A stretch of DNA of 20,000 nt from Amoeboaphelidium occidentale. Lineage: Eukaryota. Made by a program: the position numbers and the translations under genes. The stretch spans positions 174,449-194,448 of the forward strand of contig JALGPX010000002.1 in NCBI GenBank assembly GCA_023515795.1, read 5' to 3'. Under the pieces are notes generated by a model, which was not told where the DNA came from, did no database searches, and saw only the letters and a list, made by a program, of their open reading frames with translations. Positions 2,713 to 20,000 of the stretch are shown piece by piece. Every line of letters begins with the position of its first letter. The stretch's first letter is position 1.

Positions 2713-4509
2713 ATGAATCAACGGCTACCGAAAGAAGGGTTATTGGAATTCTTGCGCAAATTGAAACCAGAACCATCTGATCTAATTGAAGAATTGAACG
2801 CTGATTATGAGTTTACCGTTGGTAAGTGGATAGAGCGCTCAGAAGAAGGCTGGTTGCGACGCTATCCAAACTACGGAGACGACATCTACAATCACATCAA
2901 GGCAAAAATAGGACGACAAGCAGGCTCCGTTCCACCTGATAGTATCGCTCTGGCTGCTGGTATACCACATAACGGATATCTCTTGAGAACTGCTGTTTCT
3001 GCATTAGATCCCGATACAAATGAAGGTGTCCCTGGGACATTCAATACACAAAGAAAGGAACTAGTTGATAGTATTTTACATCTTATGGAACGTAAAGGAT
3101 TGTTCTACATCAGGGCGCCTCCATTCTGCGGGAAAACGGGCCTTTGTCAATTGTTATGCATGCGACTACTCGAAGCCGAGCCTGGTGCCGCTGTTTTACA
3201 TATTAGATGTAATGAATTGGATGAAGGTGAAAGCTTTCGCGAATTTTTCAAAAGAAAGTACAAATGCGCGTGGGAGGATTTTGTGGAACAACCATTCAAA
3301 AAGTATTTGTTGTTGGATGAAGGGCAGTGCACATATGCTGATATCTGGCTGTGGAAAACGCTGTGCAAGAATCAGTTATCACGGATTGAAAAAGGCCTGC
3401 ACTTACTAGTAGCGTCCGCCTATGGTAGCTTTGACTCACTCAGGGCACGAAGGCGTTCCGGAACCCCAATACAAATTCCTGCCCAGAACATGTTTGAGTT
3501 AAAAGATCTTATTTTAAAGAGAACAGAGTTTAATGAGATGGTTTCTGGGAGTCGTTTTGAACAACATTCTGATATAATTTGGCAAGCTTGTGGTGCTCAT
3601 ATAGGTGTAGCTTCAAGAATCTTAATCACGCTTAATCACAACCGCCGGCCTAATGAACAATTTACTCCTAATTACATTGCTAACTGGTTATACTCTGATA
3701 GTATGATCCGCTCGTTGCCTGCACAAAGAGGTTTTATCGATATGCCAGCAGTCGAAACTATCAAAACGATTTATGAGATTTCTGATGCGGCATACTCGCG
3801 AATGCTTAATGTTTTACGAGAGGTAGCTGAAGGCAAAGACGTCCCTACTAAGGATCCTGATCGGTCGCCTGGAAGCAAAGAAGCCGTGACCATTTTGCTG
3901 AAGCATGGGTTTCTATTCGACACATCGGAAGGATTTCTGACATTCGCTTCCAATGCGCACTTGAATTTCTGGTTGGCTTCCTTTCGCACTGATAGCAGCA
4001 TTTGGTTCTTTGATTCTGGTGACATCGTATCATTTGTAGTCGAATCCGTTTCCCGTATGAGCAGGAAGCTATTATCTGACGTTGTTAAAGAAAATCATGG
4101 TCGTAGTCGTGAGAGACAAATCCATGCTGTTTACTATAATGCGGTAACTTCTTTAGTTCCCAAGAAGCACCGAGTGGTTACCGAATGGCAAACTACCGAC
4201 CGTGATGGTTATGTTGACATAGTGATAAGGATCAGCGACTCCGATTTATGGTTCCTGGAGTTGTTGGTTGATGGAGAGCGAGCCCAGCAGCACAATGACC
4301 GCTTTGAATCTTATGGTAATTATTCAAAAGATGTCCAGGCTTACGGTGGAAAGTATGCTCTGATTGATTTTCGCTTAACTACCCGTATTAAAAAAAGAAG
4401 GACGGATTTCGTTTATGTTACGTTTTCAGAGAATTACAAGAATGCGACAATACAGTATGGCACATCTGAATCTAACTCTTCCACCATTACAAGAGAATTG
4501 AATGAATAG
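2713..4509 (+). CDS. Crinkler/RHS-like (CR) protein: short helical header + P-loop NTPase + PD-(D/E)XK restriction-endonuclease-like domain, 598 aa, intronless
   Basis: Walker A APPFCGKT, Walker B LLLDEGQ, ASAYGS...GTP; C-terminal ERQIH...GYVDIVI...WFLELLVDG...H..RF...YALIDFR, typical of fungal CR-NTPase+REase proteins. Confidence 0.8.
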   Translation: MNQRLPKEGLLEFLRKLKPEPSDLIEELNADYEFTVGKWIERSEEGWLRRYPNYGDDIYNHIKAKIGRQAGSVPPDSIALAAGIPHNGYLLRTAVSALDPDTNEGVPGTFNTQRKELVDSILHLMERKGLFYIRAPPFCGKTGLCQLLCMRLLEAEPGAAVLHIRCNELDEGESFREFFKRKYKCAWEDFVEQPFKKYLLLDEGQCTYADIWLWKTLCKNQLSRIEKGLHLLVASAYGSFDSLRARRRSGTPIQIPAQNMFELKDLILKRTEFNEMVSGSRFEQHSDIIWQACGAHIGVASRILITLNHNRRPNEQFTPNYIANWLYSDSMIRSLPAQRGFIDMPAVETIKTIYEISDAAYSRMLNVLREVAEGKDVPTKDPDRSPGSKEAVTILLKHGFLFDTSEGFLTFASNAHLNFWLASFRTDSSIWFFDSGDIVSFVVESVSRMSRKLLSDVVKENHGRSRERQIHAVYYNAVTSLVPKKHRVVTEWQTTDRDGYVDIVIRISDSDLWFLELLVDGERAQQHNDRFESYGNYSKDVQAYGGKYALIDFRLTTRIKKRRTDFVYVTFSENYKNATIQYGTSESNSSTITRELNE

Positions 4510-6803: not shown

Positions 6804-6912
6804 CCAATAGTGCCCGATGGACTCTTTTAAGAGGACAGAGGGTGTAAAGACATGGACTCGCGTTTTTTTCAGGGGTACGAATGGCGTGATTCTTTTGGTT
6901 CATTTGCTGATG

Positions 6913-7476
6913 GGCGTTCAACTTTTAGGTTTCGAATAGATTTCATATTTTCATATACAAAGCGTATCTGTTGCATCCTTAGGTAGATCTATTTGTTTCT
7001 TATACTTTCCATTCTTAACTATCTTCTTTCATCTTGCCGTTTCAAGTAGCGCGGCGTGAAGGGCGCAGAAGAACCTAGGCAAATTTACCAGAGCAGTTGA
7101 TTTTTTACATTTAAAAGTGACTGCTGATATCAAATCGTCCGTGTTCTGTAAACAGTGATCATCTATCTCCGGTTTTCGCTTTCTACNTGATTTTGTGATT
7201 GGCGTTCAACTTTTAGGTTTCGAATAGATTTCATATTTTCATATACAAAGTGTATCTGTTGCATCCTTAGGTAGATCTATTTGTTTCTTATACTTTCCAT
7301 TCTTAACTATCTTCTTTCATCTTGCCGTTTCAAGTAGCGCGGCGTGAAGGACGCAGAAGAAAACAAAGCAAAACTTATCAGCACTGCTGATTTTTTACAT
7401 TTAAAAGTGACTGCTGATATCAAATCGTCCGTGTTCTGTAAACAGTGATCATCTATCTCCGGTTTTCGCTTTCTAC
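6913..7476. repeat. About 275-bp near-duplicate across a single N (6913-7186 and 7201-7476); probably two haplotypes
   Basis: Near-identical copies with one divergent patch (about 7062-7097 vs 7350-7387) and N at 7187. Confidence 0.85.
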
Positions 7477-9705: not shown

Positions 9706-10907
9706 ATGAAATAAATGGGGGATTTTCACTTAAAATTTTTTTGTGATATGCAAACTTTTTGCAAAATCGAGCTCACGAAGTTCGAGTTAGCTGGTCAGCG
9801 AGTCCGAGTTAGCTCCTCACGCGAGAAAACGTAATAAAAACACTCGGAAAAGTCCTCTTACCTTCTTTTATTGTTTCTATCGGGCTAACGGTCGATTAAA
9901 ATTATGATATTGCACAATGAACAGCCGTTCAAAGTCACGATTTCGCTGATACTACAGCCCTGAGACGTAACTGGTGACTTGGAACTTCAGATATGCTCCG
10001 ATTTATCAGGCTGAGCTGTTTCAAGGTCATATTGGAGAGATCGAATGTTCTGTGTGGAGTACACGCTATTGGAACCCGACTATAATTTGAAACTCTTTGT
10101 GAAGCCTTGTTTCAGTGAATGTTTCAGGCAAGGACATGCAAGGATGAGAGTGTAATTGGTGTAAAGATGAGTTCTGGTGCCTTTTCATACTCTTTATTGA
10201 TAGGTTGTTTGAATGCGTCTCCGATTTACTGCGTAGAATAGGAAATGGATCAGATCTCCCTTAGGCCAATTTCTACAGATTTTGTCCTAAGAGAAATCTT
10301 TCGATTGGATATATAGAGATTGGAAATTAATGAAACCACTACAGCACGCCCACTACAGGAGTAGCAGGCATTAATGCAAGATGATTTCGACGCACTTTGT
10401 TCAGGGTATGCATGACATTTAAGCTTGAAACTCTTTATTGAATAGATTCTCATTGCATTGCATTCCCCAAAGTACTGTCATTAGCCAGTAAATCAATTGA
10501 AACTTAGTCTTTCGTATTCAATGTAGTCAATTGCACTTCTCGAGTCTCATTTAACCCGCTCTCTAACTTCACGCTCTCCGTCTGACAGATGAAACCAAAT
10601 ACCACCGGATCTTGGTGAAGACGAAATGCGACAAGCGAATACGTTCCGATTCGTCCATTTGGATTAAGTTATAGACATTGACAGACTTGGCACGAAGAAT
10701 GTCTACATTTTCTGTTGGACTCTTTCAGTGATCAGTTTAGCGATTAGGTCAAATATCACACCTCAACACCACTTTAAATTGAATCAACAAGGCTAGTGTA
10801 ACCGGCTTTGAAACGCAAATAAATATCATATTCGTACGTTTCTATCATGCGTCTTTCCTGCTATAGCTTGTTTGGGTGATCTTCGGTTTCAGGCTTGTTT
10901 TGTAACA

Positions 10908-13060
10908 ATGCCTAAAAGGAAGAAAAAGAAAGAGCCGGAAATGGCTTTTAGTACCGTAATCCCTTCTCTAGAAAGTGCCACGGTTGTTTCAATTGATGCT
11001 GCTGATGTTGCTCGTGTGAATGATGAAAGTCCCGAGGAGACCTCTACAAAACGTTGCAAGTCATGCGGTGGGACGGACCATCAAAGAGTTTCGTCATAGA
11101 AAAGCGCCAATTACAAACCTCCAGTTAACATGAGAAGCGTAGATGCGTCCTATGAGTATGCGACGTCTACAATCAAGTTTGGCCTGTTAAAGAATGTCAA
11201 GTCTCAAGATTTTCAAATGAAACTGAAACGTTATGTTGAAAGGATGAACTTAATTAGGATTCATGCATCAAACCTATTTAACTTGTACTTGATAGATATG
11301 TTGGCTGCTGGAAAAAGTATTGGGCTTGTTACAACAGGAAAAGATGGAACCCTGTGCAATTTTTTTGTTGCGGCTACTTGACGCACAAAAGACGTGCATT
11401 CAAATAGTCTGGAGGGTGACTTGGAAAGAATAGTTAGCGATTATGCTTCAATGCTGAAACAGGTTGGTTTTGAATTGCCCAATGGAGACGGGTTGTCACA
11501 ATCAATGGTGCATCTGGCTGGAGAATATGAAACAAGATGCAAAACTTTCGTTTCAACTACTTTGCTCGGCAGAATAGCACGCTGGTTGAAGTTTTTGTTA
11601 GAAACGGCATTGCCAGAGGTGTTCGTGAGCATGGCGCGCAGTAAAAGCGCTGCTGGTTATTTGATAGCTATGTTCATATATGAAATGTCTGATGATCCTA
11701 AAAAAACAAGAACCAACGTTGGCCAAGAAAGTGGTTGAATATTGCAAGAATTACAGTTCGATTGGGTTAATGGGTACAGCATTGGAGCAAGTGTATTGCG
11801 TTTTGAAGCAAAAAAACAGCGGTCATAAGGCTGAGTCTAGAAAAGTTAAAGATCAAGACGAATTGGCACCATTACTTGACGCTACTCTACAAAATTTTGG
11901 ACTTCTTTAGAAACCATCAAAATGAAGATGCTGCTTTCCGCGTTGAAACTCAGCAAAGAGGTAGGCGGCTTAGAACATTTACATTGGCGCCCATCTATCA
12001 AAACCGTAACGGATACGTCAACATTGACACTTCTTGCCTATTTGAAGTGTAACAATTCGAAAAAGAAGACCGACGCGACTGGGGTTTTCCTTTTGATAAG
12101 GACTTGATAGAAAAAGGAAAAACAACACGACAGTACTTTATGGAAACAGCAGAAGCTCGCTGGGGAGAAACAGTTGAGATGAAGCCTTGGTTACCCAAAT
12201 GAATGACATTTGGGTATTCGATGGTAACTGATGGCGTTTCGGTTGAATTTCATGTCATGAAAAAAATCCATGATGGGGACAAAGGTCCCGATGATTTTGG
12301 TTTGAATATGGTGGACGACAAGAAATTTTATGTTCCGGTTGATTTAAAAGATACTGTTGTCATTGGCTTAGACCCTGGGAGGAAAGATTTGTTTGATGCG
12401 TATGATGAAAATGGGTCTTTTGGTTGTTCTGGGGGAGAATGGAGACGATTGTCTGGTATTGAATTCTCTGCGAAGAACGAAAGTTTAGGTTGAGTAAACG
12501 GACTGATATCGGTAAAATCAATGCCGATATGCCTTCTGCAAAGGTAGCCACAGTCCTTGAGTTCAAACAATATTTGAGTTACTTTGCAAAAAATTTGAAT
12601 ACTTCAGTGTCTTTTTACGGATCTCACCAGTGGCGTCTTTCTAAGAAGAACGTGTGACATTCATAAACAATGGGCTTATGATCATTTGATCAAGCGTATC
12701 AAAAGAAGGGGAAAGAAAGTCTTTGTTGCTTTTGGTGGTGGCAAGTTTTCTAGTTGTTCACGTGGTCACGCTCCAATTCCGAAGGTTGGCTTTTACAAAG
12801 CGTTGAAACAAAGAAAGATTCCGTGTAGATACGTTTGGGAATACAATACCAGCAAGATTTGCGCTAAATGTTTCACTGTTCTACCAAAAGGAAGGAAATG
12901 GCGTCTGAAGATTTGCTCGAAGATTACTTGTGGCAGATACTGGAACAGAGACGTGAACGCTGCAAAAGACATGAAGTTCGTATTTACTTTCATGAACAAG
13001 AACAACGGAGAAAGACCAGAACAATTCAAACCAAAACCTACAGAAGCAGGAACAAAATAA
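10908..13060 (+). pseudogene. Fanzor1 (eukaryotic TnpB-family RNA-guided RuvC nuclease), inactivated
   Basis: Stitched frames give PKRKKKK (NLS-like), CKSCGGTDH (Zn knuckle), STIKFGL, WHHYLTLLYKIL, FTLAP...YVNIDT, TDGVSV, RuvC-I IGLDPGRKDL (D 12371), AFGGGKF, RuvC-II WEYNTSKICAKC (E 12839), RuvC-III WNRDVNAA (D 12950). In-frame stops at 11097, 11379, 12050, 12200; frameshifts near 11700, 11760-11860, 12478, 12650. Confidence 0.92.
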
Positions 13061-13264
13061 CAACAACAAAACCGAGGTAACAGAGGGACGCAAGTCCGCT
13101 CAAGACCACAATAGGGACCATGTTACGAACGTTACCTCTGATGTTGATGTAGTTACGGTTGCGTGACTACATTGACTGTTCGTATGTTGAGTCAATTAAA
13201 AGTGAAACGGGAGTCAGATTTACGAGTCTCTTTTGCGTTCTTTCTGATTGAAATCAACAATAAT
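13061..13264 (+). ncRNA. Candidate Fanzor omegaRNA scaffold / element right end
   Basis: Lies directly 3' of the Fanzor stop. Hand-derived stems: 13074-13081/13131-13138; 13147-13157/13162-13172; TTGACT/AGTCAA; 13081-13094/13232-13246; terminal TGAT-TGAA-ATCA. Confidence 0.65.
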
Positions 13265-13295
13265 AGAACCGCAGGACGTTTCTTTGCAACGAAAT

Positions 13296-13407
13296 ATGAC
13301 AGAATTTCCCAAACTTCAAAATGACACCATTTTAAGAGTAATTAAAGGCCAAAAGGTTGAGCAGACCCCGGCATGGATTATGCGCCAGGCTGGTCGTTAT
13401 TTACCGG
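13296..13407 (+). CDS. HEM12: Uroporphyrinogen decarboxylase, first exon only (cut off at N 13433)
   Basis: [37 protein letters not shown] carries the URO-D signature [11 protein letters not shown], followed by a GTAATT donor at 13408. Confidence 0.9.
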
Positions 13408-13433
13408 GTAATTTGAAATTGAAGTCAGGAGCN

Positions 13434-13570
13434 AACGTTACCTCTGATGTTGATGTAGTTACGGTTGCGTGACTACGTTGACTGTTCGTATGTTGAGTCA
13501 ATTAAAAGTGAAACGGGAGTCAGATTTACGAGTCTCTTTTGCGTTCTTTTTGATTGAAATCAACAATAAT
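13434..13570 (+). repeat. Second copy of the Fanzor right end / omegaRNA 3' part (copy 1 at 13128-13264)
   Basis: 137 bp with 2 substitutions (A13171/G13477, C13244/T13550). Starts right after the N and has a different 3' flank. Confidence 0.95.
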
Positions 13571-17993: not shown

Positions 17994-18109
17994 GCTTTAA
18001 CTTTATAAAACGAAATAGACTTTATCGCGCAGAGCTCCAGCTCAAGCGTCTACATGCTGCGAGCTGGAGTGCGAATGCGCTTTCTTAAAGGGGGTATATC
18101 TATCTCAAT

Positions 18110-18215
18110 CAAAATCCTGCAATATCATTGGCCAATTCGTCAAAATCCAGCGATATCATTGGCTGATTTGATCGTTCAAGGTGACATGTGTGTACAAACA
18201 CTCAAATATCATTGG
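18110..18215 (+). repeat. Two imperfect 31-bp tandem repeats plus a third ATATCATTGG core
   Basis: CAAAATCCTGCAATATCATTGGCCAATTCGT (18110-18140), CAAAATCCAGCGATATCATTGGCTGATTTGA (18141-18171), AATATCATTGG (18205-18215). Confidence 0.8.
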
Positions 18216-18575
18216 ATCTTGAAATCTAATTGTTTTTGAAGCAACTTGTTTAAACTCTAAAACGTCGTTGCATACATCTCTATTAGATCATTTGGTTGAC
18301 TCTTCAGTTCTGTTTCGAAGTATTCGCTCTCCTTTGAACCCATTTGCTGCAAAGATCGCAAATCGCGGAGAATTTTAAGAGAATAGAATATCATTCTGCG
18401 AAGTAACCAGAAGCTTAATCGTAGAATACAAATAGTTTTGCTCCCCGTGAGATATTCTACACTTCATTCCCAAGCTTTCGGTTGCGCTGTCGCCGATCAG
18501 AGAATGTTTTCGCTTTTTTACGAAAATTGTCATTTAACTCACTCGTCTACTACTACTACAAAATATAATAATTCA

Positions 18576-20000
18576 ATGGGCATTAAAGGGTTTAGTGCTT
18601 TTGCCAAGAAACATCAGCTGTTATCTGAGACCATCAATCTCCAAGAGTTCAATGAATTATATAAGAATCACAGGATCTTTGTGGATCTCTATGGCAGTTT
18701 CTATGATCTTATTCGTTATTATGTATTGGATGACAAGTATGAGGCTCTAGTCACTATTTTCAGCAAAATGTCTAGTGATCTAGACGTAACGTTCGTTATC
18801 GATGGCAGCCGGTCCGCTGAGAAGCATAAAACCCATGCTGCAAGAGATCAGCAACGCTTTCTTAAACTGCACTCATTTCAGGACATTATTCATTCTTTTG
18901 ATCCACAGAATAATGTTTCCAAGTCAAAGTGGCGCTCAATGGAAAAGTTCAGATATTCTTGCTTTAGAATTACAGAGCATCACACGAAACAACTATTTCG
19001 CGCACTTGAATCGGCTAATTTGCCAGTAATTCTCGCAAAGTTTGAAGCGGATGTTGAGATCGGGCGTCTAGTTGCGAAATTAAAATCGAATGAGTTATCA
19101 AATACAATAGTTGTTTCTTCGGATTCCGATCTGGTATTTTATGGATGCTCTGTTGTTGCAAAGCCTTTTTTCATGAACAAGTTTGATTGGAAATCTTTGC
19201 GTTTTACTCTCTTTCGAAAAACAATTGCACTTAAAAAGATTGGAATAACCGAAGAGTGTTGGAACGCTTTGGCAGTTGTTGCGGGGAACGATTACGTTTC
19301 CAATTTGAGGGGATTCGGCATTGCGAGATGTTTGAAGGAATTTCAAAAAATTAATGAAAATGGCGCTTGCACTGCTGAAGAAATGGTGGAAACATTTGAG
19401 CAATCGCACGATAAAAAAAGGTCATTTTCAGATTGCCAGTGCAGTGTTTTTGAATTATCAAGAGACAAGTTGTGCGGTCTGTGTTGAAAGTCTTCAAGAG
19501 CAAATGTTTAAAGATTGCTGTAGTCAACTTCAGCTTTTAAAAGAAAAGTACAGAGCTGCCCGCGCCGCAAAGCGTCAAACCACTCAAGGAAGGTCTTTGC
19601 AAGAGCTGAAACATTTAAAATTTCCTTCTCGAAAGAATGCGTTTAGCCCCGTGGTTCATACTCAACTCGGGCGTTATAAAGTGAAAAAGATCGCAAAAAT
19701 TAAATTAACACAATCTGATGTGACTTCGGCTGAAACAATTGCTGGCCCTGTTTCTGTACAATCTTCAACAAGAAAGAAATCTACCAGGAGACAAGGGACG
19801 AAAAAGAAGAAGAAAGCTAGATACTTGAAGTCAGCAAAGCAAACTAGGACCAAGCCTTCTTTAAACCCACATGGTAAACACAAATTGGCTCAAACTACTG
19901 TAGACATGTGCACTCTTAAAAAACAATATCAGATTAAATCATGGCAGCTGGGAACTTTGCGAAGCCAAATCAAGAAGTCTTCCTTGGATACTGAAATTCA
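18576..20000 (+). CDS. PIN (XPG/FEN1-like) nuclease domain protein with long basic extension; frameshift at A7 19413-19419; 3'-truncated by window; candidate PIN-Fanzor fusion
   Basis: MGIKGF, IFVDLYGSFY, FVIDG...EKHKTH..R, FEADVEIG, VSSDSDL, GNDYVSNLRGFG (H3TH). Removing one A gives a frame open to 20000 (KGHFQIASAVFLNYQET...TKKKKKAR...IKSWQLGTLRSQIKKS). Confidence 0.75.

Follow-up and report, generated by a model that had tools for sequence, protein, structure and literature searches.

The last part of the window, the stretch of 20,000 nucleotides from Amoeboaphelidium occidentale that was analyzed, carries the 5' part of a gene that very probably extends beyond base 20000 to encode a RuvC nuclease of the Fanzor type, like the genes of its full-length relatives. 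The encoded protein begins with a nuclease domain of the FEN-like PIN type, and the window also includes a basic linker and the start of a Fanzor-like moiety; the RuvC half lies outside the window. The FEN1/EXO1-Fanzor-like fusion is probably intact in the lineage of the window copy. The window is part of a compact eukaryotic scaffold, in which Pfam matches identify an SPX-ankyrin-GDPD gene, a protein kinase and hydrolases.

Table 1. Features of the fusion gene and of its upstream region in the window
Feature	Position	Strand	Basis
Candidate left end of element; sharp boundary common to a very high-copy repeat	18021..18130	+	X1/X2 contig joins, depth
Subterminal hairpin	18028..18073	+	Fold z -2.63; perfect 9-bp arms 18035-18043 / 18061-18069
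Upstream non-coding region common to copies	18131..18575	+	X1 depth 300-1,800
FEN1/EXO1/XPG-type (FEN-like PIN) 5' nuclease domain	18576..19470	+	Pfam, PDB sequence matches, profile
A7 run with one-base frameshift; X1 contig one A shorter	19413..19419	+	Protein alignments, X1 contig
Lys/Arg-rich linker (26% Lys+Arg), NLS-like by composition only	19567..19911	+	Composition
Start of Fanzor-like moiety, open at window edge	19897..20000	+	Profile via relatives, structure model of P0016
Motif IKSWQLGTL	19933..19959	+	Within start of Fanzor-like moiety

The nuclease ORF starts with the ATG at 18576 and matches Pfam XPG_I above the cut-off (E 3.4e-7). Human EXO1 and FEN1 are the top matches in a sequence search of the PDB (E ~1e-7). 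The motifs FVD, IDG, EAD, DSD and GND are present, and G2, D37, D76, K83, R90, E157, D159, D183, D185 and D239 are all found in the window protein. In the alignment, the window agrees with three canonical rows at the columns of the seven acidic metal ligands and of the arch Lys and Arg. A previous reading made from the sequence only had described the XPG/FEN1-like acidic motifs as intact, and indeed all seven acidic residues are retained. Judged by these comparisons, the domain is of the FEN1/EXO1 type with complete catalytic residues; together with the fold match of a relative to EXO1 (below), it agrees with the XPG N- and I-regions and their H3TH motif. Its terminal helices fall beyond a frameshift.

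The window protein can be separated from the nucleases that eukaryotes use in DNA repair. On a PIN profile derived from ten fusion proteins with RuvC, and not from the window protein, window residues 1-298 score 205.8 bits, versus 39-99 bits for canonical XPG-family matches. A tree made with FastTree only, from 134 of 164 rows, places the window in a group of 35 rows (SH-like 91) together with five RuvC-bearing proteins. All 26 canonical rows, labelled by Pfam score only, are on one branch of 34 rows (SH-like 87) that does not include the window; both supports are below the tool's mark of 95. The rows dropped from the tree were 9 near-duplicates or fragments and those with fewer than 170 aligned residues, P0021 among them. 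The window protein thus groups with the fusions and not with host EXO1, FEN1, XPG or GEN1. Grouping with Exo1, Gen1, Rad2 or Asteroid was the outcome that the sequence-only reading had named as fatal to it, and neither profile nor tree points that way. The gene might nonetheless be a host DNA-repair gene (an orthologue of EXO1, FEN1, RAD2/XPG, GEN1 or Asteroid) with a long tail, as the XPG_I match above cut-off and EXO1 as the best solved relative would permit. However, the XPG_I score is 31 bits versus 55-93 in 29 canonical matches, the window is off the canonical branch, and the read depth of the ORF is elevated. Also, the tails of canonical proteins reach at most 0.3 bits (10 reported of 12) on a profile of the fusion C-terminus, versus 32.5 and 32.9 bits for the tails of the two closest relatives of the window protein, P0001 and P0021. 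A host-repair gene is highly improbable on these grounds, and this explanation is already largely refuted.

The frame of the gene is interrupted in the window. The sequence-only reading held that the gene continues past 19487 after a one-base shift; the shift is real, but it occurs in the A7 run and not at the stop at 19487. About 190 more open codons had been claimed, and the second frame has 195 codons without a stop (19414-19998), for which the chance is ~1e-6 given the composition; the other two frames have 10 and 14 stops. P0001, which is from A. occidentale, aligns across both window frames as one ORF, and P0021, a Logan protein, is 84% identical to the window over 243 residues that span the break. 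A contig of the public run X1 lacks one A of the run at a depth of 224.9 of 224.9, and X1 has only 4 differences in 4,507 nt from the neighboring host genes of the window. Because this contig, from a nearly identical run, lacks the extra A at full depth and the relatives form one chain, the extra A probably reflects an error in the assembly or a private feature of the window copy or strain. Programmed frameshifting was also considered, and is ruled out by the open frame in the X1 contig and in both close relatives.

After the break comes the Lys/Arg-rich linker, which agrees with the previous description; the stretch of the P0016 structure model that matches it is of low confidence. The start of the Fanzor-like moiety, taken from the window alone, gives just 10-12 bits on the C-terminal profile. 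The likeness that had been proposed between the motif at this position and the corresponding motif of the window's own Fanzor is not significant in pairwise comparison (BLASTP E 0.18; hhalign probability 1.5%, in register), but family comparison and the structural alignment both support it. The scores of the P0001 and P0021 tails, which cover about 100 residues beyond the window edge, compare with at most 4.5 bits for shuffled sequences (213 and 228 reported of 300 each). The X1 contig reaches ~487 nt beyond base 20000.

P0001 is encoded on a 62.9-kb contig. Its alignment with P0021 has no gaps over 131 residues, and the two cease to match at the same Glu. This common end, the frameshift of the window copy and the many short proteins in the family could mean that the window lineage is a truncated derivative that consists of PIN, linker and the first Fanzor helices, and that has lost its RuvC domain. 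However, the end of P0001 (E-Y-V) and that of P0021 (E-end) are compatible with the coding sequences GA|GTAYGT and GA|GTAA, which, as far as the proteins reveal, would correspond to read-through of one common intron donor. The donor GTACGT is in use in the relative at locus L005, and introns split the genes at L005, L006 and apparently L007. Moreover, P0001 and P0021 share 40% identity in the remaining Fanzor-like helices. From these sequence features, an intron probably explains why P0001 and P0021 terminate about 100 residues beyond base 20000, and truncation is improbable.

The family to which the window protein belongs gives 314 matches at E<=1e-3 among 1.84 billion representatives, and its description rests on the 150 of these that are listed. 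Named sources among the matches listed are Amoeboaphelidium protococcarum, Linnemannia gamsii, L. zychae and Dissophora globulifera, and shorter members come from Modicella and Podila. The closest named relative of the window gene comes from an aphelid. In relatives from aphelids, Mortierellaceae and metagenomes, this head, linker and motif recur and precede a RuvC of TnpB/Fanzor type. In the ten long representatives (907-1,302 aa, one for each cluster at 50% identity), the order is PIN, basic linker, a T/W-x-I/L-G-x-L motif, a helical region and RuvC. All 17 family proteins of at least 750 aa, which fall into these 10 clusters, score on a RuvC profile, a result that is partly circular, since 10 of the 17 went into the profile. 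Loci L005 and L006 are outside the profile and score 70 and 108 bits on it. Pfam Cas12f1-like_TNB is above its cut-off in five of the ten cluster representatives and below it in a sixth. The other 85 of 102 family proteins are shorter than 750 aa and have no RuvC, and 50 of them are shorter than 330 aa; they may be exon or contig fragments, or true PIN-only genes.

Eleven loci were fetched as DNA. Locus L001 is a single ORF of 1,281 codons without introns, and for this reason the fusion is not an artefact of gene models. Both PIN and RuvC are present at L001, L005 and L006. PIN and the post-linker motif are found by profile at L008 and L010 and by eye at L007, and L002, L003, L004 and L011 end shortly after PIN. 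L005 and L006 have a common intron just 5' of the RuvC-II Glu, which explains gene models that lack this residue. Candidate intact members of the family are L001/P0015, P0016 and P0034, and the window's own family appears open in frame in X1. The large proteins of early-diverging fungi such as Mortierellaceae that the sequence-only reading described, with this PIN variant and a C-terminal TnpB-type RuvC, thus correspond to an existing architecture, seen in long homologues, some of them from Mortierellaceae, and once as a single ORF on DNA.

Searches for still other relatives gave little. Word-index searches, which are weak, returned one match for the longer proteins, four for P0001 and two for alignment A1. 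In the ESM Atlas, P0016 belongs to a eukaryotic cluster of 58 members named Cas12f1-like TNB (score 0.99), which may be its own family, and the P0021 tail has no usable match there. Pattern-based, weak searches found no relative among prokaryote genomes, plasmids or viral contigs, and a phage search gave just weak TnpB-like matches (best E 9e-3). One fetched locus includes a different PIN fusion: a 933-aa ORF (L009:719-3517, + strand) has an XPG/Asteroid-like N-terminus, and the profile does not recognize its long, unassigned C-terminus as Fanzor.

The RuvC half of the relatives has the anatomy of a Fanzor. The D-E-D triad is present in all seven complete proteins, and at L005 and L006 it is distributed across their common intron. 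The pattern D-X(125,275)-TS-Zn-RD is also found in 7/7, with a spacing of 169-216. The distance from the RuvC-II Glu to the first zinc-finger Cys is 7 residues in five of the seven, 6 in one and 9 in one; the relatives thus show the shifted Glu, about six residues ahead of the zinc finger, of the signature of Yoon et al. The zinc finger has two CxxC in four of the seven proteins, CC plus CxxC in P0016, and one Cys in P0008 and P0015. The last two are intact fusions (P0015 corresponds to L001) whose C4 zinc finger is reduced to this single Cys with the D-E-D triad retained. DPG is absent from RuvC-I in all 12 proteins inspected; most members have D-hydrophobic-G in its place, L006 has DLG, and DPG occurs only at L005. 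Yoon et al. (bioRxiv 2023.08.09.552727) describe TnpB proteins of one clade that likewise have the shifted Glu but lack DPG.

Structure models point in the same direction. Foldseek with the P0016 model (mean pLDDT 69, from 9 sequences) puts SpuFz1 first (E 2e-9), then FEN1, PpFz and GtFz, and a model of the P0015 C-terminus again has SpuFz1 and PpFz on top; the Foldseek rmsd values are high, and thus the domain packing in the models is unreliable. With VIA, P0016 residues 15-304 align with EXO1 at Z 18.8 (rmsd 2.8, 264 residues), and P0016 aligns with GtFz1 at Z 11.5 (rmsd 4.9 over 449 residues); GtFz1 ranks no higher than CasPhi3, Cas12f and Fanzor2. The match of P0016 to Fanzor, TnpB and Cas12 chains begins at residues 479-481, which is the motif at the window edge. 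The cues for placement as Fanzor1 differ: Foldseek favors Fanzor1, VIA is tied among Cas12, TnpB and Fanzor chains, and a sequence profile of the zinc-finger region against the PDB favors Fanzor2 (E 9e-11, versus just 0.011-0.015 for Fanzor1). The family is Fanzor-like by anatomy, and it may or may not belong to Fanzor1.

The 3' end of the gene might supply a guide RNA. A fold with a z-score of -4.06 is predicted for the final 214 nt of L001, and the structured stretch overlaps the end of the ORF. Folds at the 3' ends of L005 and L006, in windows picked after a scan, have z-scores of -2.1 to -2.5, and the opposite strand is similar. Rfam has no match for the 3' ends, and blastn among the fetched loci reveals no common ends and no common 3' sequence. 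The overlap at L001 raises the question of whether the FEN domain acts on RNA, perhaps by trimming a guide from the 3' end of the mRNA or by clearing the RNA-DNA hybrid after a cut. Relatives with the FEN fold include XRN1 and T4 RNase H, which is compatible with such a role. However, in the fold comparison the DNA enzyme EXO1 matches best (Z 18.8), and XRN1 follows only at Z 13.1; also, to our knowledge, characterized Fanzors function without a FEN-type domain. We regard a role on RNA as quite improbable and prefer a role on DNA ends.

The fusion gene is likely mobile and present in multiple copies. In Linnemannia gamsii, six members with 90% identity are on contigs of five different sizes, and the L005 copy has an SF3B1 gene on one side and a second host-like gene on the other. 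Depth in X1 is 225-255 on the window ORF versus 105.9 on host genes, and variant contigs are seen; this suggests that the window gene is present in two to three copies, with the caveat of the tool that contig depth is not copy number. Farther upstream, an X1 contig over 18169-18468 has a depth of 300. At 18019-18021, many X1 and X2 contigs join different flanks, and the summed depth at this boundary is more than 20,000 versus 105.9 on the adjoining host genes. Because depth is at least 300 up to 18021, there is no gap of single-copy depth ahead of the ORF, and we infer that the boundary belongs to the window element. We read this left end as one that is common to abundant non-autonomous derivatives. 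Alternatively, an unrelated repeat may have been inserted ahead of a duplication.

No transposase ORF is seen beside the gene at L001, L005 or L006. Perhaps the FEN domain serves transposition itself, by removing the displaced single-stranded flap when a Rep/helicase provided in trans mobilizes the element in a Helitron2-like rolling-circle manner, with a separate role for the Fanzor moiety. The first base of the candidate left end is a T, and a subterminal hairpin is present, as in Helitron2; a 12-bp hairpin lies upstream of the L005 gene, and L001 ends in a hairpin. Non-autonomous Helitron2 elements that carry Fanzor1 are also described in the available text of PMC3627910. Against this, the window hairpin starts 7 nt from the boundary and not 0-2, L001, L006 and L007 have no comparable upstream hairpin, and a Rep/helicase is seen in no fetched locus. 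The window does not reach the right end or a possible asymmetric inverted repeat. Also, such a mechanism leaves the retention of both domains in a single polypeptide unexplained. Rolling-circle transposition as the purpose of the FEN domain is unlikely. At locus L010, a decayed PIN-Fanzor copy is preceded, at a distance of ~1.5 kb, by a Tc1/IS630-like element (L010:2612-3988; DDE_3 E 7.9e-28) with its own inverted repeats of 52 nt.

The window also contains a decayed gene of conventional Fanzor1 type (10909-13270, + strand), which has stops and frameshifts, DPG and a Cas12f1-like_TNB match (E 1.6e-8). X1 depth over it is 260-470, with variant copies, and its 3' tail (13075-13224) is structured (z -2.9). 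A link between this gene and the fusion was rejected, as the decayed gene has DPG and no PIN, and on the family profile nothing but its RuvC end gives a score (45.8 bits). Its right end occurs twice (13128-13570) around the N at 13433, and between the two copies a URO-D gene begins (Pfam E 3.9e-11). A 15,830-nt X1 contig matches only 13214-13432, and thus the scaffold probably joins two insertion sites here. Other N gaps of the window are bordered by duplications, of which 1829-2058 and 6902-7476 are near-identical, and these are probably scaffolding artefacts. Just upstream of the decayed Fanzor gene is another repeat (10000-10667; X1 depth 1,500-1,850). Finally, a 598-aa ORF (2713-4509, + strand) with a P-loop-like motif and no Pfam match is flanked by 136-nt direct repeats at 2379 and 4716. 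This ORF may resemble Crinkler-type nuclease effectors.

Resection of the EXO1 type commits breaks to homologous repair. In the explanation that we favor, the RuvC moiety would cut the empty site of the element under control of a guide RNA, which may derive from the structured 3' end. The tethered FEN domain would then trim the 5' ends or remove 5' flaps at the guided break, and the break would be repaired by copying the element back in. The element itself would be non-autonomous and would reach new sites by a transposase in trans. Given the fusion, chances are about even that the job of the FEN domain is such resection or flap removal, which would favor homologous gene conversion over end joining in the repair. 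The whole reading, with RuvC fusion, guided cut and FEN resection for homologous copying, has somewhat less than an even chance. In a more radical version, the element would be self-sufficient without any transposase, with one protein that cuts by RNA guide and resects, so that it spreads in early-diverging fungi by recombinational copying only; this version is rather improbable.

Fanzors and TnpBs that have been characterized cut on their own and have no known part in processing the ends, which falls to the host. A lineage-wide fusion with EXO1/FEN1-type and RuvC sites both intact suggests that the element has control over what follows the cut. According to the available portion of PMC13565253, which reviews the role of TnpB and Fanzor in homing, the reliance of eukaryotes on end joining makes homing less adaptive. 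The fusion makes it possible to test how RNA-guided homing pays off where end joining competes with homologous repair, and it is a natural counterpart of engineered nuclease-exonuclease editors.

No description of a FEN1/EXO1-Fanzor fusion was found in those parts of the Fanzor/TnpB literature that were accessible; subscription papers, Repbase and further supplements are outside this scope, and papers there may list fusion proteins as Fanzors without comment. The accessible text of PMC3627910 has 0 occurrences of XPG, flap or fused, and that of PMC10530073 with two supplementary files has 0 matches for XPG, FEN1 or the host genera. The fusion is likewise not described in the accessible parts of PMC10432273, PMC10691335, PMC10288648 or bioRxiv 2023.08.09.552727. 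Conversely, TnpB and OrfB have 0 occurrences in the accessible text of a paper that classifies FEN-like PIN domains (PMC5499597).

Several known systems resemble the fusion family in part. With EXO1, FEN1, XPG/Rad2 and GEN1 it has in common the fold, the seven acidic residues, the Lys and Arg of the helical arch and the N-terminal Gly, but the family is a separate clade, has a RuvC module attached and is apparently mobile. The mechanism proposed here for the family resembles restorative homing by TnpB of IS200/IS605 (available portion of PMC13565253), with a guide from the right end, cleavage of the empty site and gene conversion. In that system, however, resection is performed by the host, and the fusion family is without TnpA and, in the weak searches described above, without a prokaryotic, plasmid or viral relative. 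Non-autonomous Helitron2 elements with Fanzor1 (CRe-1/2/3) similarly have a Fanzor cargo without a transposase and, like the candidate left end in the window, a 5' T and a 5' hairpin, but a FEN domain is not described for them in the text available. The Fanzor1 proteins SpuFz1, PpFz1 and GtFz1 (Bao & Jurka 2013, PMC3627910; Saito 2023, PMC10432273; as far as available) are also eukaryotic, tolerant of introns and multi-copy. These have the same WED/REC-RuvC-zinc finger order, D-X(125-275)-TS-Zn-RD pattern and C-terminally shifted RuvC-II Glu. In contrast to Fanzor1, the fusion proteins mostly have D-hydrophobic-G, lack sequence-level significance to solved Fanzor1 structures, and have no transposase seen in cis. 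They are also larger (1,100-1,300 aa versus ~600 aa), and they add at the N-terminus a catalytically intact (as predicted) FEN-type nuclease of ~300 residues and a basic linker.
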